A DNA stretch of 64,000 nt. Source: an uncultured Nitrososphaerota archaeon. Its GTDB lineage: Archaea; Thermoproteota; Nitrososphaeria; Nitrososphaerales; CADDZS01. Position 1 is the stretch's first letter. Each line of letters begins with the position of its first letter. The position numbers and the translations under genes were made by a program. The stretch lies in assembly GCA_963799845.1 (NCBI GenBank), contig CAWCYI010000006.1, positions 608,001 to 672,000 of the forward strand, given 5' to 3'. A model generated the notes under the pieces. The model saw only the letters and a list, made by a program, of their open reading frames with translations, was not told where the DNA came from and did no database searches. Below are positions 47,865 through 58,592 of this stretch, one piece after another.

Positions 47865-48491
47865 TTGATGATCCCGATTCCTAATCATGCCGCTCAAATC
47901 AAAGTAGATGCCGCCATAATGCAAGAGAGAGAAGGTCTAATAAATCGCGGACTGGCAGCTCGCAGCGACGTCCAGAAGGCGGTCTTGTCCATAACCGAAT
48001 ACAGGTTTACAACAGTAGACGGCCAACTGATAGTTGTTGCAGCCGATGACAAATTCAAAGTCATACTGGGAAGCTATCCAAGTTACAGCCCAAGATCAGG
48101 TCTCATTTTCAAAGTTGATTCTGGAAGGGAGACCGATGAGAGTCTGGTTGTGGACGTTATTTCGAGAGAGTTAAGGACGATCTTGGGTAGGGCAACAGCC
48201 ATCAGAGGAAAAAAAGTTGTAGAGTACTGTGGACAAACCTCCCTTGACTCGGACCAGATGATGACGACTATCACTGTGGCTCTGAAGCAAGAGGCGGGAA
48301 TAACTCGCGAAGAGGTAAAGAAAGTATCACGGATGCGAAGGTTCATGTCAAGACTTGGATTCAAGAGTACGCCCTCTTCCGAAGCTTCCAGAATCACTGA
48401 TTACAATTCGGCTGCAAAAACTGGAACAAGCATCGGTGATTTGACTCTTCAGGAAACATATCATCGGCAATTAGATGCATTATTACCCTAG
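47865..48491 (+). CDS. Hypothetical protein
   Basis: 208-aa ORF filling the gap between the tRNA and the Thr-rich gene; no recognised motif. Confidence 0.6.
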   Translation: MMIPIPNHAAQIKVDAAIMQEREGLINRGLAARSDVQKAVLSITEYRFTTVDGQLIVVAADDKFKVILGSYPSYSPRSGLIFKVDSGRETDESLVVDVISRELRTILGRATAIRGKKVVEYCGQTSLDSDQMMTTITVALKQEAGITREEVKKVSRMRRFMSRLGFKSTPSSEASRITDYNSAAKTGTSIGDLTLQETYHRQLDALLP

Positions 48492-48607: not shown

Positions 48608-50302
48608 CTAACATCCAAAGTAGTCAGTCTGAGTTGTCGATGAGTCAGTCGCTGTTGAAGTGGTTGTTGAAGCGCAGCTATTTGTAAAAGTTGTAGCTGT
48701 CACGGTAGTTGCAGTTACAGTTGTTTCGTAAGTAGTTGTGGTTCCCCCATCAACTGTCTGATAAGTGGTAACTGATCCGCCATTAATTGTAGAAGTAGTA
48801 GTTGTACTATCAGTTTCAGTCGAGGTAGTTGTTGTGGTGGTTGTCTGAGTGTAAGTTGTAGTAACAGTTGTAGAATCTGTTTCCGTTGACGTTGAACTTG
48901 TAGTCGTCGCAAATGTCTGGGTAGTAGTCGAGGTCACAGCAGTTTGATCCGTTTCTGTCGATGTTGTAGTAGCAGGAACTGTCGATGTTGAAGTTGTGGT
49001 TATGGTGGTTGGATCCGTTTCCGTAGAAGTTGTGGTCGTAGGAATCGTAGTTGTAGATATGGTCGTATCTGTTGTTGTGGTGTTGTGTATATGAGTCGAC
49101 GTGGTGGTTGTAACGGTCGGAACTGTTATCGTTGTCGTCACACTTGTAAAGACATAATCAGTACCTGTCGATATAGTTGTAGTTGGAATGGTTTGGGTAG
49201 AGGTCGAAGTTATCGTGGCCTGATCCGTCTCTGTGTTTGTTATCGTAGTTTGATCTGTTTCTGTAGATGTCGTTGTAGTGGGAAATGTAGAAGTTGAAGT
49301 GATAGTCTTTGGAACGATTATCGTTGTTGTGCTAGTCGTAGAAGCCGTAGCGGTTGAAGTCGATGTCGTAATTGCTGGAATCGTCTGAGTAGAAGTCGAA
49401 GATACGGTGGTCTGAATTGTGTCCGTGGAAGTTGTCGTAGCAGGGATAGTCGTTGTAGAAGTTGTTGTAACGGGAATAGTGGTCGTAGAAGTTGTAGGAA
49501 TGGTCACGGTTGACGTTATCGTAGCAGGAATTGTCGTTGTAGATGTTGTTGAAGCGGAAATCGTCGCTGTAGACGTTGTGGTTGCAGGAATAGTATCTGT
49601 AGAGGTAGTAGTTGCCGCAACGGTTTGAGTGGATGTTGTAGACACCGGGATAGTAGTCGTTGAAGTTGTGGTTGCCGGAACGGTTGATGTTGATGTTTTG
49701 GTCGTAGGAATTGTGACTGTAGAGGTTACCGTTACTGGTATTGTTGTGGTCGAAGTCGTTGGCACTACTGAAGTCGAAGTAACTGTTGTGGTTGTCGAAG
49801 TTGGAATCGTAGTAGTCGAAGTAACTGGAATTGTTGTCGTGTACGTTGTGGCTGTTGCTACAGTTGAAGTTTCCGGATCCATGGAAGTTGAAGTAACTGT
49901 TTGAGTTGCAGTGGTTGAATCGGTCACAAGAGTCGAATCAGTCACTGTTGTCGTATCTGTGTCTGTAACGTGAGAGGTAGAGGTTACAGTCGTTGGATCG
50001 GTCAGAGTAGTATCGAAGGTTGATGTACTAGTCGTTCCGGTCATACTGGTCACGGTACTCGAGAAGGTCAGCGTAGTACTCGATATGAAACAACATGCAG
50101 TCGAGGTCGAAGTCGTAGTTTCAGTTTTACAGCAAGTCGTCTTCGTCGATGTTACCGTTTTGGTTGTTGTCTTAGTGGTCGTTTTTGCGGCTGTTGTTGC
50201 CGCTGGAGCTTGGCTCTGCGAAAAGGCCGAGGAAGAAACGGCCGTGAAAGCTACAAGGATAACCAAAAAGACCAGAGCCATTAAAGCGAATTTTCGAATC
50301 AA
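48608..50302 (-). CDS. Secreted Thr-rich repetitive (mucin/adhesin-like) protein
   Basis: Signal peptide MIRKFALMALVFLVILVAFTAVSSSAFS; many TTTSTxTIP-like repeats; CC..CC near the N-terminus and two Cys at the C-terminus. Confidence 0.85.
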   Translation of the reverse strand: MIRKFALMALVFLVILVAFTAVSSSAFSQSQAPAATTAAKTTTKTTTKTVTSTKTTCCKTETTTSTSTACCFISSTTLTFSSTVTSMTGTTSTSTFDTTLTDPTTVTSTSHVTDTDTTTVTDSTLVTDSTTATQTVTSTSMDPETSTVATATTYTTTIPVTSTTTIPTSTTTTVTSTSVVPTTSTTTIPVTVTSTVTIPTTKTSTSTVPATTTSTTTIPVSTTSTQTVAATTTSTDTIPATTTSTATISASTTSTTTIPATITSTVTIPTTSTTTIPVTTTSTTTIPATTTSTDTIQTTVSSTSTQTIPAITTSTSTATASTTSTTTIIVPKTITSTSTFPTTTTSTETDQTTITNTETDQATITSTSTQTIPTTTISTGTDYVFTSVTTTITVPTVTTTTSTHIHNTTTTDTTISTTTIPTTTTSTETDPTTITTTSTSTVPATTTSTETDQTAVTSTTTQTFATTTSSTSTETDSTTVTTTYTQTTTTTTTSTETDSTTTTSTINGGSVTTYQTVDGGTTTTYETTVTATTVTATTFTNSCASTTTSTATDSSTTQTDYFGC

Positions 50303-50427
50303 TTTTCCTATGTCACCCTATCTTTTACTACCGAATTTTGGATCTTCTTGGATAACGAAAAATTTTGGAGAAGGAAGCTTGCCGGATGAAAAGCGCACCA
50401 AAACGCTGGGTGAATAAAATAGGAAGC

Positions 50428-51177
50428 TTATGGGCAATTCACCTGAGTTTGTGTCGTCGTCGCACCGGTGATATCGCTTTCCGTACATGTTAGCGTGATC
50501 GTGGCGCCTGTCGTGATTCCGGTGACTGTAATTGTCTTTGTCACTTTTGTCGCTGTCGAAACCGTGGCAGTTGTTCTTTCGGTCTGCGTCGTAAGCGCAG
50601 TTTGTGTCGTGGACGCGGTTAAGGTACGAGTTGTGCGATCCGTTTGGGTTGTCTGAATAGTATCTGTGAGAGTCGTCGGAAAAGTGCTCGTTATCGTCTC
50701 GATTGTGGTCTCTGTGATCAGAACCGTGCCGGAAGTTAGTACAGTAGTTGTCTGCTCTTCAGTTTGATAAATTATTTCACTCATAACCGAGGTCGTAAAT
50801 GATGTCAGGGTCTGGGTCGCCGAACCGTTAGTCACGGTCGTGTAGATAGGAATCGTGAGCGTCGAATTCACGTTTGAAGTCGTTACCGTATAAGAAGTGA
50901 CTAGAGCTGTGCTGGTCCCGTTGATGAGCGTCGTTGTGAAATGATTGGTCTGCGTCACTGTTTCTGGTATCGTGGTCGTGGTGTTGACGTAGTTCGTAAT
51001 GTTTGTTTCGTCGGCATTTGTCGTCTGATTACCGGGTTGCGTCGTCACAGTGTAGGCTAGTGATGAAAAAGAGGACGAATTGAACGGGAATAAGGTCCTC
51101 TGGACTCCTATCACCCCAATTGAGATGGTCAAGATGATGGCTATGGAAATCACTGTGAGTATTGCTGATCTTTGCAT
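50428..51177 (-). CDS. Membrane-anchored/secreted Thr-rich protein
   Basis: N-terminal TM/signal, Thr-rich body with several NxS/T sequons, terminal C..C pair (LTCTE...VNCP). Confidence 0.8.
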   Translation of the reverse strand: MQRSAILTVISIAIILTISIGVIGVQRTLFPFNSSSFSSLAYTVTTQPGNQTTNADETNITNYVNTTTTIPETVTQTNHFTTTLINGTSTALVTSYTVTTSNVNSTLTIPIYTTVTNGSATQTLTSFTTSVMSEIIYQTEEQTTTVLTSGTVLITETTIETITSTFPTTLTDTIQTTQTDRTTRTLTASTTQTALTTQTERTTATVSTATKVTKTITVTGITTGATITLTCTESDITGATTTQTQVNCP

Positions 51178-51402
51178 GATCTACGCGCTTTTTTTATTTC
51201 GACGCAGGATTATGCTGGTTACCAGTTTTGTAAGTTGTATTTTTCTGGATCGGGACTAGTACCATTTTTCCAAGGTCCGTCTCATCTCAACCAGTGGGGT
51301 AGATTTTTCATCGTGTCAAAATTCGTTTGCCACGTAGTCTAAGATTGAAAACAATAACCATAAAGGCCTCCAATCGACTAGCAACGGCCGGAAGACCCCC
51401 TC

Positions 51403-52749
51403 ATGACGTTAGCGAAAGAGTTTAGCATTTACGGCGAAGATTACGGTACCTCGGAATTCAAGTTTGGCGTTGCTACGCTCGGGAATACGCCCGATGCCAT
51501 TGACTCCCGTGGATATTTCCCTGATATGAGAAGCGCTCTGCTGAACTTGAGTTCTCGTTCAGCAAAGACCATGTCGTCAGGGAGAAACAATCAGATGTTG
51601 GTTGTTGGACCCACCGTAGCACAACACCTGGAGGCTCGGCGTGACATCGCGGAGCGGATGGTTTACCCCATGCGGAACGGCGAAATCGAGTCAGACGATG
51701 AGAGAGCTTGGTTAGTGGTCAAAGAAATTACGCGTTATGGTCTGCTGAGGCACGCACCAGAGAAGGCGGTCGCGCCCGAGTTCAACGGCTTCAAATGCGT
51801 CGGTGCACTGTCTGCGACTGCTCCACGCTACATGTACGACAGGCTCATAGGGATTCATCGGGAGATCAACAATGAAGAAAACAGAACGCTCACAAGGGTC
51901 CTGTCCATCATACCTCAGCCTCTTGCAGTAGCTATCTCTCAGAAACGACTAGCGTGCACGGTTCTGGAGGGAGGACACGGTAACACTCAGGTCGCTCCCA
52001 TAAGCAGCGGAGTGATTTTCAGTGCGTTAACGACGCTCAATAGAGGGGGCAGCGACTGCGACCTGATCGCGGCCGAGATATTGAAGGATGCAGGCTATTC
52101 TGATCTCGCCCGCGAACCCAAACTCGTCAAGGTATTCAAGGAATCCACGGGTCTTATCCCGAAGAACTTGGACAAGGTGATGCAAGAAAAGCAGACCACC
52201 TTGTTTGAGACAACGTTCAAGATTCCGTCGACAAAGATCTCCATAAGTTTGGGCAAGAACAGCTGGCAGCGTTTTTTGATGGGAGAGTATTTCTTCAATC
52301 CGAACCATGAGATCTTTGCCTCTTATTACAGGAGAGGATTCCCGAGGCCGGCGGATACGTACAGCGAGGGAAGAGCTGTTCTTGGAACCACCGATCTGGC
52401 TGATGTCATCATCCAGTCCGTCCAAAAATGCAGTTTTGAAATTCAACCCGCACTCTATCAGAACATAATTCTGTCTGGCGGTAATTTTGCATGGCAGGTG
52501 CCTCCGAACCTGACGAATTACGCTGTCAACTCGCCCGCCAAGCTCAAGAAGATGCTCGAAGAAAAGGGAATCGCCGGAAGCACGGTCGAGCTCACGAAAA
52601 ATCCGGTCTACAATGTGTGGCAGGGATGCATTGCTTACGGGCTCTACACTCCTGAAAATTATGAATGGGACTGGGATTCGCGGGAAGGGTGGCTACAGCT
52701 CGTTGCGAGTGCGGAGCTGGGCGAACAGAGCATCAGTGCCGAAATTTAG
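51403..52749 (+). CDS. Crenactin (archaeal actin)
   Basis: Phosphate-1 GEDYGTSEFKFG, YPMRNG..DDERAW, LSATAPRYMY, IIPQPLAVAI, phosphate-2 EGGHGNTQVAPIS, LNRGG, EILKDAGYSDLARE, RFLMGEYFFNPNHE, IILSGGNFAWQVPP, VWQG..YG, REGW; colinear with Pyrobaculum crenactin as recalled. Confidence 0.92.
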   Translation: MTLAKEFSIYGEDYGTSEFKFGVATLGNTPDAIDSRGYFPDMRSALLNLSSRSAKTMSSGRNNQMLVVGPTVAQHLEARRDIAERMVYPMRNGEIESDDERAWLVVKEITRYGLLRHAPEKAVAPEFNGFKCVGALSATAPRYMYDRLIGIHREINNEENRTLTRVLSIIPQPLAVAISQKRLACTVLEGGHGNTQVAPISSGVIFSALTTLNRGGSDCDLIAAEILKDAGYSDLAREPKLVKVFKESTGLIPKNLDKVMQEKQTTLFETTFKIPSTKISISLGKNSWQRFLMGEYFFNPNHEIFASYYRRGFPRPADTYSEGRAVLGTTDLADVIIQSVQKCSFEIQPALYQNIILSGGNFAWQVPPNLTNYAVNSPAKLKKMLEEKGIAGSTVELTKNPVYNVWQGCIAYGLYTPENYEWDWDSREGWLQLVASAELGEQSISAEI

Positions 52750-52793
52750 CGAATAAAAAAATAGAGATATCCTTGCGCTAAAGATTCTGCGGG

Positions 52794-54059
52794 ATGTAAC
52801 CGGAAACGTCATCTGATGACGAGAACGCTCCCGAAGATGGAGCAACTATCCCAAGAGGAAGCGATGACGCTCCCATTCCTGCCGAGCGAACTATCGCTTC
52901 AGAGAGGAGATGGAGTAACCTCTCCTTTCCTCTGACGATAGTATTTGGCGTCTCGTTCATCTTTTTCCTGTATACGGCGAGTTATTCATGGTATGTGGGA
53001 GGGGGGGCTATGACTCAGAGCGTGCCCTGGCTGTATTCATCGGTTGCGATCTCGGGAGCAAGCCTCTTCGCGCTGAGCAATCTCTACATTTCCAGAAAAC
53101 TCCCGAAAATTACGTCTCTTCAAAGGTTTTTGCTATCATTCTTCGACCTAGGGGCATACTTTTGCCTTGTAGCGCTGGTCGTGTGGGGTTTGCTCTTTCC
53201 GATCCTGCGTCCGATCACCGATCCGAATTTTCAACTTTACTTACTTGGGCAAAAAAGTCTCGCGATGGATCTGTACACGGGGTTGGTCCTTTGCTCGATC
53301 GTGATCGTTTTCCGCATTGCGCTTCAGCTGCTAATTGCTCGTTCCAGCACAATCATGATTGTATCCCCTTCAAAGCCGCAATTCGGAAACACAATTCCGG
53401 TTAGAGATTCCTCGACGGATGGCGGTTCTCTTGAAAGCAAGATCTCATCAATCCACATGGAGATAACAAGGTTGAGAGAGGAAATCGCGTCGCTAAGTGC
53501 TCCGGGTACTGCTCTGAGGCTTACCAATCTGATGGGGGCGGTTGAATCGCCCGCGAATAACCGAGAATCGCCGGTTTCACTGGTAGACGAGATGGAAACG
53601 CTACCGTCAAGTCTAGCAGAAACCTTCGTGCAAAACCTTCCAACCAGAGATTCGGTTTCTCAAGAAACTGGAATGGAAGAAATGACAAACGGTGAGGTCA
53701 TCCAATCCGAGGCAAACTTTTCTCCAGAGTATTTTGCAAGTGCTGGAGGTCCACAGATTCCCGATTCTGCCAGGGATAATCCCTGGGCCTCGGTGCTTTC
53801 TAGAAGACAGCCGACGGCCCAGTCGAAGCCCATTCAGAAAAGAAGGGCAATCAAAAAGTCAAAGAAAAGGGTGCAAAAAGAAAAGCCTGGAGAAGATTCT
53901 CCGCCCATTCCTGTAGGAGTCGTGAAACTGGAACCGGGATCATCATCCCCGGTATCCGACGACGCACGCGACAGCCTGTCCTACTTCGCAATAATTTCTT
54001 CTGACAAAGATACTAGAGCCTTAGTCCGTCGCGTCGTGTTAGTTATCTGTAATACTTGA
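52794..54059 (+). CDS. Four-TM membrane protein with coiled coil and arcadin-2-like motif (start uncertain; in-frame ATG 52794 is followed by TAA)
   Basis: Frame is open from 52800 and adds a first TM (LTIVFGVSFIFFLYTA) ahead of track ORF 52995; coiled coil LESKISSIHMEITRLREEIASL; IPDSARDNPWASVLSRR at 53757-53807. Confidence 0.7.
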
Positions 54060-55601: not shown

Positions 55602-57110
55602 ATGCATATGAATTTTCCAAAAAATGGCAACAGGTCAATTTCGACTGTTGTGGCTGTAGTCATCGTTATAGTCATCCTGATAATCGCAGGTGCAGGCGCT
55701 TACCTTGCCCTGGGCTCCAAGAGCTCCACCACGACGACAACGAGTTCTTCGTCGACTTCTTCCACTTCTAGCTCATCCACCACCTCTTCGTCGAGTTCCA
55801 GCTCGGCGCCAGCGGTTAACTCTACAATTCAGATTGTTTTCGGCGCTAGTCTTTCGCTTACCGGAGGGGCGCAACCTTTTGGGTTGGAAGATAACTGGAC
55901 GCTAAACCAAGCCGTCAATTACGTCAACAGTCTTGGCGGGATTCCTCTGCAGAACGGTACGCACGCGATGATTAAGCTAGTCGTGTTAGACGACCAGTCT
56001 AGCGACACGACATCAATCAACAACTACAACACCTTGGTCACGACGGATCATGCCGTAGTCTTGATGGGACAGCTCGGCACAATAGATGATTTGATCGCCG
56101 GGAATTTTGCACAGCAGCACCAGATTCCTCTGATCGGACCTTACTACCTGTCAGCTGCAAAGCAGTGCACGCCCGAACCAACCTGCGTTAACTCATGGGT
56201 CTTTGGAACTTTCCACAACGAAACTAACGAGGCTCATGTTTTCTTCAACTGGTTCAAGACCGTCGATCCTTCAACAAGCACTCACAACGTCACTATAGCC
56301 TTCTTTGAAGAGACTGACGACTCTGCTCAGGCAAACTATGCCGCGGGCAAGGCTTACGCTGAACAGCTGGGCTACACTGTTTGCACTTGTTCTGACACAA
56401 CCTTCCAGGCTGGCAGCTCCTCAGAGATGCAGAGCTTCCTCACAGCTGCAAAAACTGCGGGAGCCGAAGCAGTCTTCGGTCTGCCTTCGCCGGGAGACGC
56501 TGCACTAATGATTAACACTGCAAAGCAGATCGGATACCAGCCATTAGCGTGGCTCCTGACAAGGGGAACGGCAGTTGCCCCGTTTGCTGTTCCGCAGATC
56601 GGCGGAATCGGTACGCTTGCAAGTGGTGTAATGTCTGCGTTCCCGTGGGCGCCGGGACTTCCCTACTCTGCGGACATCCTCGGTCACAATCTCAGCAACC
56701 CCACAATAGTCAACGAGTACATGGCCGCTAACGGCGGACAACTACCTACTCTTGAGGGCGTCTATTATTCCGGATTTGCCGTAGCTGTCGACGCGATCTC
56801 GCAGGCGAGCAATCTCTCGAATGTTGCAATCAGAGAGGCGCTGAGGACCCACACATACCAGACTTTCATGGGACCCATGAGTTTCAGTCCCGGCGGGCAG
56901 TGGGTGCAATCTGACCAGTACATGTTGCTTCAGCAGTGGCAGCTGGTTTCAGTCAACGGGGCGATGACTCCGGAGCTAAAGATACTGGAGCCGACAAATG
57001 TGAACACCACGAGCTTCATCATCTATCCGTTCACCTTCGCAAATCAGACTGAAATGCTGTGGCCTCCGAGCGGTGAATCCACCATGATCACTGCCACAAG
57101 CAGCGGCTAG
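55602..57110 (+). CDS. Liv-type ABC transporter substrate-binding protein
   Basis: Pilin-like N-terminal anchor (NRSISTVVAVVIV), Ser/Thr linker, GASLSLTG, VNSLGGI, VLDDQS, TFMGPMSF. Confidence 0.85.
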   Translation: MHMNFPKNGNRSISTVVAVVIVIVILIIAGAGAYLALGSKSSTTTTTSSSSTSSTSSSSTTSSSSSSSAPAVNSTIQIVFGASLSLTGGAQPFGLEDNWTLNQAVNYVNSLGGIPLQNGTHAMIKLVVLDDQSSDTTSINNYNTLVTTDHAVVLMGQLGTIDDLIAGNFAQQHQIPLIGPYYLSAAKQCTPEPTCVNSWVFGTFHNETNEAHVFFNWFKTVDPSTSTHNVTIAFFEETDDSAQANYAAGKAYAEQLGYTVCTCSDTTFQAGSSSEMQSFLTAAKTAGAEAVFGLPSPGDAALMINTAKQIGYQPLAWLLTRGTAVAPFAVPQIGGIGTLASGVMSAFPWAPGLPYSADILGHNLSNPTIVNEYMAANGGQLPTLEGVYYSGFAVAVDAISQASNLSNVAIREALRTHTYQTFMGPMSFSPGGQWVQSDQYMLLQQWQLVSVNGAMTPELKILEPTNVNTTSFIIYPFTFANQTEMLWPPSGESTMITATSSG

Positions 57111-57169
57111 CACGAAAACTTGGATGTGCCACCGGAAGCAAGCTGGTGCATCCTTCTTCCTATTTTTCC

Positions 57170-58592
57170 CTAGTCTGAATAAGAAGGCTTTCTCAAGTGA
57201 TGATCTGTTGTTCGCTGGAATGCATCTCCGACATTGAAGACAACGTTCTCCCGCCAGTGGGATCCTATAATCTGCATTCCAACCGGCATTCCGTCGCTGA
57301 ATCCCGCCGGGATCGAGAGAGCTGGCAGTCCGAGAAGATTGAACGGATATGTGTTCTCCGTGAGCACCTGGAACGCTGGATACTTTTTTCCGCCGATTCG
57401 AATTGTGTCCTGATCGATTCCAGGGGCGACCGAAGGATTTGTGGGAACGAGTAGGGCGTCTACTTCGCTCAATTTCTTCGCTACTTTTTGCATGATGATC
57501 GTCCTCGCGCGTTGAGCCTTCAGATACTGGGTGGCGAGGACTGTATGCCCTAATTGCACGTACCCGAGCAGGACTTTGCCGTACATCTCCTTTTTTGTGC
57601 GAAGCCAATCCTCGTGATATGCGGCCACCTCGGGCAGCGCTATTGCAAAGATTGTGGGCGTCACGAGTCCTACATCGGGCAGCGTGACATCCACGAGCTT
57701 GCCCGAGCTCTGAAAAAACGTTCACACTTTCTCGAAACCTCACGGTTACTCCTTCATCTGAGTCGCGAATCGGGTTGACAAAGATTCCGATTTTGAGGCC
57801 CTCAAGACTAGGTTCATCGGTGAATACGTATTTTTTTGGATGCGGTGAGCCGAGTGTCGATGAATCTCGATCGTCGAGACCCTGAGAAACTTCGAGGAGC
57901 AACGCCGCATCCCGTACAGTTCTCGTCATGAAGCCGACATGGTCTAGAGACCAGCACATCGAAATTACCCCGGACCTTCCCACGCGTCCGTAAGTGGGTT
58001 TCAGTCCAGTTAGATTGCAAAACGAAGCCGGGATTCTGACAGATCCTCCCGTGTCACTCCCCGTCGAAGCACAGGCTTCTCCGGCAGCGACCGCAGCGGC
58101 CGAACCGCCGCTCGATCCGCCCGGAATCCTCGTTAGGTCCCAGGGGTTGAGTGTCCTACCATAATGAGGATTGTTTGTGGCGATTCCGAAAGCGGCGAGC
58201 TCGTCCAGATTTGTTTTCCCAATAAAGGCCGCGCCCTCTTCTCTCATCTTTGAGATAAAGCCGGCATCTTTCTCCGAGACGTTGTCCTGAAGGATTTTCG
58301 AGCCTCCGGTACACGGCAAACGGACGACGTCGGTATTATCCTTCACGGCAAGGAAGGTGCCGGTTAGCGATCGCGCAGACCCATTCTTGATTTGGCTCGT
58401 GGAAATTCTTGCGACGTCTCGCAGACTCTTTTCATCGACCAGATGAATGTACGCATGGATTTTTTCCTCCTTTTGCCTGATGTTGTCGAGTATCGAATCC
58501 AAGAGGTCTTCCGGTTCGTAGTCTCCGGCACGAAACCCGCGGCGCAGTGACGAGATCGATTCGAATGCAAGGTCTGATTTCGTGACTACCAA
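57170..58592 (-). CDS. Amidase signature enzyme (GatA/AtzE-like), frameshift near 57703
   Basis: AVKDN, GKTNLDE, GGSSGGSAAAVA, GSDTGGSVRIPA; C-part NTYPFNLLGLPALSIPAG..PVGMQIIG. Confidence 0.88.

Follow-up and report, generated by a model that had tools for sequence, protein, structure and literature searches.

A gene for crenactin, the archaeal actin, and the membrane-protein gene that follows it on the same strand are the subject of this report. They lie in a stretch of 64,000 nucleotides (nt), here called the window, from the genome of an uncultured Nitrososphaerota archaeon (4.6 Mb in 9 contigs, 86.7% complete). The product of the second gene is a candidate membrane-anchored variant of arcadin-2. 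Two Thr-rich genes, ThrA and ThrB, are oriented divergently from the pair. The four open reading frames (ORFs) placed at this locus by a preliminary description of the DNA all exist (Table 1), as does the intergenic region of 225 nt that it reported between ThrB and crenactin (51178-51402).

Table 1. Features of the crenactin locus, with motif-bearing KaiC-domain genes of two related loci
Feature	Position	Strand	Remarks
Crenactin, archaeal actin	51403-52749	+	448 amino acids; phmmer, NCBIfam, Pfam
Candidate membrane-anchored arcadin-2-like protein	52800-53994	+	Open frame; native stop 53992-53994
Four predicted membrane helices	52905-52997, 53007-53099, 53115-53207, 53247-53363	+	AlphaFold2 model and hydropathy windows
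Short coiled-coil helix SLESKISSIHMEITRLREEIASLS	53427-53498	+	AlphaFold2 helix, residues 176-199
Putative arcadin-2-type crenactin-binding motif IPDSARDNPWASVLSRR	53757-53807	+	Trp codon 53784-53786
Lys/Arg-rich patch KPIQKRRAIKKSKKRVQKEK after the motif	53826-53885	+	Sequence reading
ThrA	48608-50302	-	564 amino acids, 46.6% Thr; N-terminal hydrophobic signal or anchor
ThrB	50428-51177	-	249 amino acids, 34.1% Thr; N-terminal hydrophobic signal or anchor; 7 N-x-S/T sequons
KaiC-domain protein with motif (genome G008)	L009 6706-8586		Upstream of crenactin
KaiC-domain protein with motif (genome G010)	L010 7529-9382		Upstream of crenactin

The assignment of crenactin, already made in the preliminary description, is solid on sequence grounds. 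A phmmer search aligned residues 10-430 with residues 14-427 of Pyrobaculum calidifontis crenactin (PDB entry 4cj7) with an E value of 8.8e-85, and the NCBIfam crenactin model NF053560 was matched from position 5 to 421 of 422 with a score of 475.2 bits. This score falls below the equivalog cut-off of the model (630 bits), so the window protein is a divergent member of the family; it matches the Pfam Actin family at 3e-12 and is about 39% identical to the crenactins of the Thermoproteaceae. The nucleotide-site block GHGNTQ, from G191 to Q196, is invariant in 15 of 15 crenactin sequences and is aligned with 'gghgniq' of 4cj7. The glutamine of a block of this type has been described as the water-activating residue (PMC5173319). 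The source genome holds a single crenactin copy.

The membrane gene had been taken to begin 44 nt after crenactin. A polytopic membrane frame is indeed present downstream, but the ATG at that distance (52794) runs straight into a TAA codon (52797). The resulting two-codon unit, ATG-TAA (52794-52799), stands at the opening of the membrane-gene frame and has as its equivalent GTG-ACG-TAG in G004, the closest relative. The frame itself is open from 52800, 50 nt past the crenactin stop codon, and its translation, which includes a complete first membrane helix, resembles those of relatives. No ATG, GTG or TTG occurs in it until GTG 52995; at 52893, where the nearest homologues (P0001, P0003 and P0004) start with Met, the window has ATC. 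Translation from ATC 52893 would give four membrane helices and from GTG 52995 or ATG 53011 three, and either choice leaves the tail on the same side of the membrane. The letters of the start region are identical in Logan contigs of two runs. The odd start is thus not an error peculiar to the window assembly and is real for the population.

At the other end, the frame as assembled continues to 54059, the position previously given for the end of the ORF. This extension is due to one extra C at 53975/76, which leaves the last 27 residues out of frame; the native protein ends in ..DDARDSCPTSQ. The protein P0006 does not reflect the additional base, and a Logan contig of run X1 lacks it as well. 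An error of assembly is therefore probable, and it touches only the last five codons.

The membrane protein and its tail motif

The membrane protein has no family match in Pfam or NCBIfam. A word-indexed search found 20 homologues, and 47 representative clusters were obtained at E <= 1e-3 when 1.84 billion representatives were searched in full with a HMMER profile; 31 of the clusters combine at least two hydrophobic helices with the tail motif discussed below. The family of membrane-type arcadin-2-like proteins is small but real. The window gene scores 499 bits against the profile of this family (A2), the window sequence being one of the 17 from which the profile was built.

The four membrane helices proposed earlier reappear in an AlphaFold2 (AF2) model computed with an alignment of 15 homologues (A4), which has four long helices at residues 2-32, 36-66, 72-102 and 116-154; the predicted local distance difference test score (pLDDT) of this block is about 75-90. 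Beyond it lies a helix, residues 176-199, in which the hydrophobic residues are spaced 4-3-4-3, a pattern that reads as a coiled coil of three heptads; its L-R pair does not vary among the 17 family members aligned. Approximately 90 disordered residues follow, and then a short helix (residues 294-300). Clusters of Lys and Arg residues precede helix 1, lie between helices 2 and 3 and follow helix 4, and by the positive-inside rule both termini, including the tail that carries the motif, would be cytoplasmic. A search of the ESM Atlas gave no usable match for the membrane domain. Foldseek, queried with the model (which is low in mean confidence), gave 0 matches to the PDB at E <= 0.001 among the 156 listed, so the membrane domain is without a recognised fold relative. 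As a separate observation, the Lys/Arg-rich patch beyond the motif has comparable counterparts near the C-terminal end of the longer homologues P0009, P0012, P0015 and P0017; lipid or nucleic acid are possible ligands of such a patch.

Conservation in the family is highest in the motif. The P, D, A, N, P, W, L and R residues of IPDSARDNPWASVLSRR are invariant in 17 of 17 sequences and account for eight of the 11 invariant columns of the family, the other three being the coiled-coil Leu-Arg pair and a single Pro of the linker. True arcadin-2 proteins end in ..(D/E)NEWV(R/K)(I/L/Y)LR.R, the crenactin-binding helix reading ..DNEWV(R/K)ILRSRG. Only N, W and L are invariant in the tail columns of 21 arcadin-2 sequences, and all three are among the invariants of the membrane type. 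When the two families were compared with hhalign, 26 tail columns were aligned (probability 71.9%, E value 3.4e-5), which bears out the arcadin-2-like tail recognised in the preliminary description. The loose pattern [DN]N[EP]W..[IVL]L occurs once in the 9,207,086 six-frame positions of the genome, in the membrane gene, and this six-frame scan revealed no second carrier. The resemblance to arcadin-2 ends with the tail. The soluble N-terminal core of arcadin-2 (model positions ~1-150) is absent, with membrane helices in its place, and the NCBIfam arcadin-2 model (Rkd2, NF053561) found no match to the tail (from 53400) at E <= 10, to the whole protein at E <= 0.01 or to the whole genome at E <= 10.

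A function for a tail of this type is known from arcadin-2. The conserved C-terminal domain of arcadin-2, positioned behind an unstructured linker, binds in a hydrophobic groove of crenactin with nanomolar affinity, for which a tryptophan is the probable reason, and the complex of crenactin with the arcadin-2 peptide has been solved (PDB entry 5LY3; Izore et al., 2016; PMC5173319). In vitro, crenactin is depolymerised by arcadin-2 and by its C-terminal peptide, an effect explained by a clash of the bound peptide with the D-loop of the neighbouring subunit (PMC5173319).

We folded the window crenactin (15-row alignment) together with residues 232-285 of the tail (17-row alignment) in three runs, with 3 controls. 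The interface score ipSAE was 0.84, 0.85 and 0.86; the best control reached 0.01. In calibration, 58 of 80 solved complexes and 2 of 110 mismatched pairs attained the mark set for this score. The runs had at least 64% of contacts in common, and the pLDDT of the partner was at least 57. W264 and L268 of the membrane protein contact crenactin residues 177-183 and 410-417 in the model. Residues 177-301 of the window crenactin were aligned with residues 142-265 of actin, and we take the contact residues to belong to the region of the target-binding cleft, or hydrophobic groove, of actin (Dominguez, 2004). As modelled, and only as modelled, the motif helix is placed in the hydrophobic groove of crenactin between subdomains 1 and 3.

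Occurrence of the pair and of the motif in relatives

The membrane gene is a conserved neighbour of crenactin, a point that the preliminary description had proposed to test. Within the genus it lies 36-55 nt after crenactin in G004 and G002, that is in two of the two genomes with readable context, and the frame is open directly after crenactin as it is in the window; the crenactins of these genomes are 90 and 75% identical to that of the window, respectively. A contig of G003 starts inside the membrane gene, and the other three genomes of the genus (58-85% complete) showed neither crenactin nor the membrane gene. The order of crenactin followed by a membrane-type gene recurs in five further loci, namely L014, L016 ('Thaumarchaeota archaeon AUK100') and L019-L021, the last three from two Methanomethylicus species and one relative. 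The motif in these five is 7-9 residues or less from the C-terminal end.

A wider view was obtained from the best 80 of 210 relatives retrieved in a crenactin alignment search, taken as species loci. A motif-bearing ORF stands beside crenactin in 60 of these 80, and no motif is seen in the other 20. The partner is soluble in 51 cases, of the membrane type in seven and of a KaiC type in two. The soluble partners have about 200-306 residues, end in LPS(F/Y)..DNPW(L/V/I).ILS.R and are homologous to true arcadin-2 proteins by BLASTP; the three that were tested match NF053561 from end to end with E values of 3e-8 to 6e-6. A search of PDB sequences with one soluble arcadin-2-like protein (L063) gave coiled-coil noise, with no arcadin-2 chain among the matches. 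Phylum-wide, NF053561 scores above its cut-off in 11 of 401 genomes, all of one family, the Thermoproteaceae, and in Thermoproteaceae loci the arcadin-2 gene directly follows crenactin in 12 of 12.

A crenactin tree of 92 rows was calculated by a quick search, with support from the Shimodaira-Hasegawa-like approximate likelihood ratio test (SH-aLRT) only and with the Asgard actins left out. L018, a match cut by a contig end, was dropped, and six rows trimmed at a stop codon were kept. Eight membrane-type and two KaiC-type rows form one clade (SH-aLRT 91), nested in a group (support 99), the other branch of which is without a motif-bearing neighbour.

The KaiC-type rows come from G008 and G010, which represent sister genera in the same family. 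Their crenactins belong to the clade of the window crenactin and the motif is the same, PD/N..(D/E)NPW..(I)IS.R, but it is carried by a KaiC-domain protein of 617-626 residues encoded upstream of crenactin (PF06745, E values of 4e-45 and 4e-51). The C-terminal regions of these proteins contain ..EDLPNAVKDNPWTKIISER or ..AANENPWASIISSRE, with the motif at or near the C-terminus, and a protein with a vWA domain and a coiled coil is encoded after crenactin. The window genome is different: eight tblastn queries with crenactin-linked vWA genes and two small upstream ORFs (E 1e-3) found nothing in it, and two KaiC-like queries found generic KaiC-domain paralogues only. In a further genome of the family, G011, the crenactin locus appears to be decaying. 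Here (L011 9176-9937) crenactin is reduced to an open frame of 262 residues, the adjacent KaiC-like gene is broken and the motif has decayed. Among soluble proteins, P0174 has three tandem copies of the motif and P0177 two, an arrangement reminiscent of tandem WH2 repeats. Since it is found on several scaffolds and in tandem copies, the motif behaves as a portable module. A separate observation concerns P0041, a protein of 632 residues annotated with Actin and VWA domains and apparently a fusion of crenactin and vWA; it links the vWA neighbours to crenactin function.

The preliminary description recognised no arcadin-3 or -4 beside crenactin, and we found neither of them, nor a canonical arcadin-2, in the 86.7%-complete genome. 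The best genome match to NF053563 (Rkd4) scores 61.8 bits against a cut-off of 860, lies on another contig and has similar counterparts in 12 of 14 control genomes; NF053562 (Rkd3) gave 0 matches in a search run without a positive control. Soluble arcadin-2 queries returned matches with E > 0.09 only, one of which is the window's own motif. The genes in the arcadin-1 position elsewhere (five genes just upstream of crenactin, their identity itself putative) gave no tblastn match at E < 0.09. NF053559, guessed to be the arcadin-1 family, was rejected as it is LolB1_Flavo.

With respect to lineage, crenactin was found in five of 12 other genomes of the window's family (that of G011 being truncated) and in 0 of 48 genomes from 19 other families of the order. 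The expectation that most characterised ammonia-oxidising members lack actin agrees with these 60 relatives: amoA (PF12942) is present in 16 of the 48 genomes from other families, which are all 16 genomes of four families, and none of the 16 has crenactin. The window's family has amoA in 0 of 13 genomes, and for its absence from the source genome the later search of relatives supplied the positive control. L013, a relative in the same genus, was described as a 'heterotrophic terrestrial Thaumarchaeota' metagenome-assembled genome in a study whose main text does not mention crenactin and whose Supplementary Data may list such calls (PMC10640624).

Some other genes of the region and genome are recorded here for completeness. 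The ORF at 47865-48491 (208 residues) has no match in Pfam or NCBIfam. The forward-strand gene at 55602-57110 codes for an N-terminally anchored solute-binding protein (Peripla_BP_6) that has a Ser/Thr linker of about 40 residues; Ser/Thr-rich surface linkers are common in the source genome. The amidase-like gene at 56976-58592 on the reverse strand is split over two overlapping frames, an ORF of 538 residues with a nonsense second half and one of 174 residues (57170-57694) that carries the amidase C-terminal end. The frameshift, near 57700, could be an assembly indel like that at 53975 or the mark of a pseudogene. Five genes of the tubulin/FtsZ family score above the Pfam cut-off in the genome, one of them at G000 C6:603337-603819, 4.2 kb before the window, and CdvA (PF18822) has no match.

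A proposed two-gene actin module and its alternatives

We propose that crenactin and the gene that follows it constitute a two-gene actin module, the product of the second gene being a variant of arcadin-2 that is anchored in the membrane. We would put the probability of this reading at roughly 70%. About four membrane helices, forming a bundle, would have taken the place of the soluble N-terminal domain of arcadin-2, while the short coiled coil, the long disordered linker and the helix with the Trp (DNPWASVLSRR) would remain. Within a filament, the D-loop of the next subunit would fill the groove, which would be open only in monomers and at one end of the filament; the membrane protein would therefore hold monomers, or that end, at the inner face of the membrane. 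The protein probably dimerises through its coiled coil, and capture would make use of a flexible tether some 90 residues long. The outcome might be filament assembly that is localised or anchored, rather than mere bulk depolymerisation. A direct link from actin to the membrane through the motif-bearing tail is suggested.

Comparison with arcadin-2 of P. calidifontis (Rkd2, NF053561) is instructive. In both systems the gene comes directly after crenactin and shares its strand, and in both a coiled coil and an unstructured linker lead to a Trp helix of the form D-N-x-W-x-x-(I/V)-L-x-x-R; the helix would occupy the same hydrophobic groove, in the window protein according to the model. Unlike the window protein with its membrane helices, arcadin-2 has a soluble alpha/beta N-terminal domain. 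The residues before the Trp also differ, being LPSF..DNPW or ..DNEW in arcadin-2 and PD(S/A)A.DNPW in the window family. Finally, the motif is terminal in arcadin-2 but internal in the window genus, where about 60 residues follow, the Lys/Arg-rich patch among them.

A bacterial counterpart of a kind is RodZ, an integral membrane protein whose cytoplasmic part binds the actin homologue MreB and couples it to the envelope. RodZ spans the membrane once and binds MreB via a folded helix-turn-helix domain, on a different surface. The likeness, a membrane protein with a cytoplasmic part that would bind an actin homologue, may be taken as an analogy; RodZ is unrelated in sequence to the window protein. 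The authors of the arcadin-2 structure named ParR with ParM, and WH2 or thymosin beta-4 with actin, as analogues of arcadin-2 (PMC5173319). These share with the present motif a short helix on a flexible tail that enters the groove of an actin fold, various scaffolds and tandem repeats. There is no sequence relationship, and the likeness is in working mode only.

Several points weigh against our proposal. The hhalign comparison is confined to 26 tail columns, the rest of the membrane protein being unrelated to arcadin-2; a motif this short may arise by convergence, and its internal position in the window genus is not that of arcadin-2. Because no canonical start codon precedes the first membrane helix, the gene may be expressed as a three-helix form, or poorly. 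The confidence of the whole-protein AF2 model is low (mean pLDDT 58.6, predicted template modelling score 0.37), the low mean pLDDT arising from the disordered tail. The pass of the complex model may reflect memory of, or resemblance to, the solved complex: with 5LY3 available, it shows likeness to that structure rather than binding by the window copy. Lastly, anchoring, rather than sequestering, is pure inference, and what published arcadin-2 does in vitro is depolymerise filaments.

That last point leads to a rival explanation which we judge rather unlikely, but which deserves serious attention: the membrane protein may be a membrane-bound sink that sequesters monomers and keeps crenactin unpolymerised, neither anchoring nor nucleating filaments. 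The activity of arcadin-2 and its peptide, with the clash at the D-loop, would be expected of such a protein, and the modelled contacts involve the same kind of surface. However, membrane helices are of no obvious gain to a protein that sequesters, and the presence of the motif on a KaiC-like ATPase and in tandem arrays is a pattern that suggests recruitment or scaffolding.

It is improbable, in our view, that the gene is decaying or mis-assembled in this genome, with its start lost and its 3' end frameshifted, and that the module is non-functional here. The ATC codon where relatives have ATG, the ATG that is followed by TAA, the extra base that alters the last residues, the amidase-like gene likewise split between two frames and the clearly decayed locus of G011 could all be cited in favour of decay. 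Yet more than 1,190 nt of the frame are intact, conservation of the first membrane helix is seen at the protein level and the same frame is open straight after crenactin in G004 and G002. The extra base, absent from the X1 contig, probably affects the last five codons only, and a start at ATG 53011 would still give a three-helix protein with the tail on the cytoplasmic side.

The preliminary description envisaged a larger module, in which crenactin, the membrane protein and the two Thr-rich proteins would join a cytoplasmic actin filament, across the membrane, to a stalk or adhesin outside the cell. Its intracellular half, crenactin with a motif-bearing membrane neighbour, agrees with our findings; the inclusion of the Thr-rich surface proteins is not supported, and we regard the full module as distinctly improbable. 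The two Thr-rich genes are adjacent to crenactin and divergent from it, both products have the N-terminal hydrophobic stretch expected of the exported proteins described, and they are two of only 10 stop-to-stop ORFs of at least 150 residues with at least 25% Thr in the 4.6 Mb. In G004, and there only, a homologue of ThrB was found in this divergent position (E 5.9e-7). In G002, a genome of the same genus, two epimerase/dehydratase genes stand upstream of crenactin in its stead, and ThrB was not found in G002, G003, G008 or G010 (61-94% complete). The gene directly upstream of crenactin in L014, L016, L019 and L021 encodes a vWA protein, and these loci have no Thr-rich ORF flanking crenactin and none above 7% Thr. 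Contigs C1, C4, C6 and C9 hold five further Thr-rich ORFs that share this N-terminal hydrophobic stretch, and the outside loops of the membrane protein are short in the AF2 model, offering little to bind an external partner. ThrA, built of degenerate repeats of 30 and 60 nt, and ThrB have no family match in Pfam or NCBIfam. Both are probably ordinary glycosylated surface proteins, encoded upstream by happenstance and not part of the actin system.

That the motif matches by chance or convergence, and that the membrane protein has nothing to do with crenactin, is very unlikely: although the similarity covers some 12 residues with an hhalign probability of only 71.9%, the motif is unique in the genome and, apart from one Leu-Arg pair and one Pro, the sole strongly conserved block in 17 of 17 members, its carriers stand beside crenactin in 60 of 80 species loci with three protein architectures, and the complex model scored 0.85 against 0.01 for the best control.

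To return to the proposed two-gene module, a bolder extension of it is conceivable, which we offer tentatively and would not yet rely upon. The DNPW helix may be a portable archaeal actin-binding peptide, comparable to WH2, carried on at least four scaffolds: the soluble arcadin-2 domain, the four-helix membrane anchor, the KaiC-like ATPase and arrays of two or three motifs in tandem. The membrane form, probably dimeric, would then tether or nucleate filament ends at the membrane. If this were true, a mesophilic soil thaumarchaeon and Methanomethylicus would possess a genuine linker of actin to membrane by which the cell could be shaped or constricted, and crenactin systems reported to have 'no arcadins' would in fact hold unrecognised ones.

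We know of no established connection between an archaeal actin filament and the membrane. The roles of crenactin and the arcadins have been described as unclear (PMC10936438). Arcadin-2 is already known, and the membrane-anchored form is what is new here: we found no title or abstract on a membrane-anchored arcadin in the literature searched, where supplements (e.g. Supplementary File 2 of PMC9723716) may list arcadin calls. A membrane-integral carrier of the one experimentally defined crenactin-binding peptide makes the question of how the filament meets the membrane testable, and a larger group of actin regulators in archaea, so far unrecognised, is indicated by the occurrence of the motif on a KaiC-like ATPase and in tandem arrays. 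The reading of published genomes may change as well. Kohtz et al. (2022; PMC9723716) reported crenactin but 'no arcadin-related proteins' in Methanomethylicia. In three Methanomethylicus-type loci the gene that follows crenactin carries the motif.

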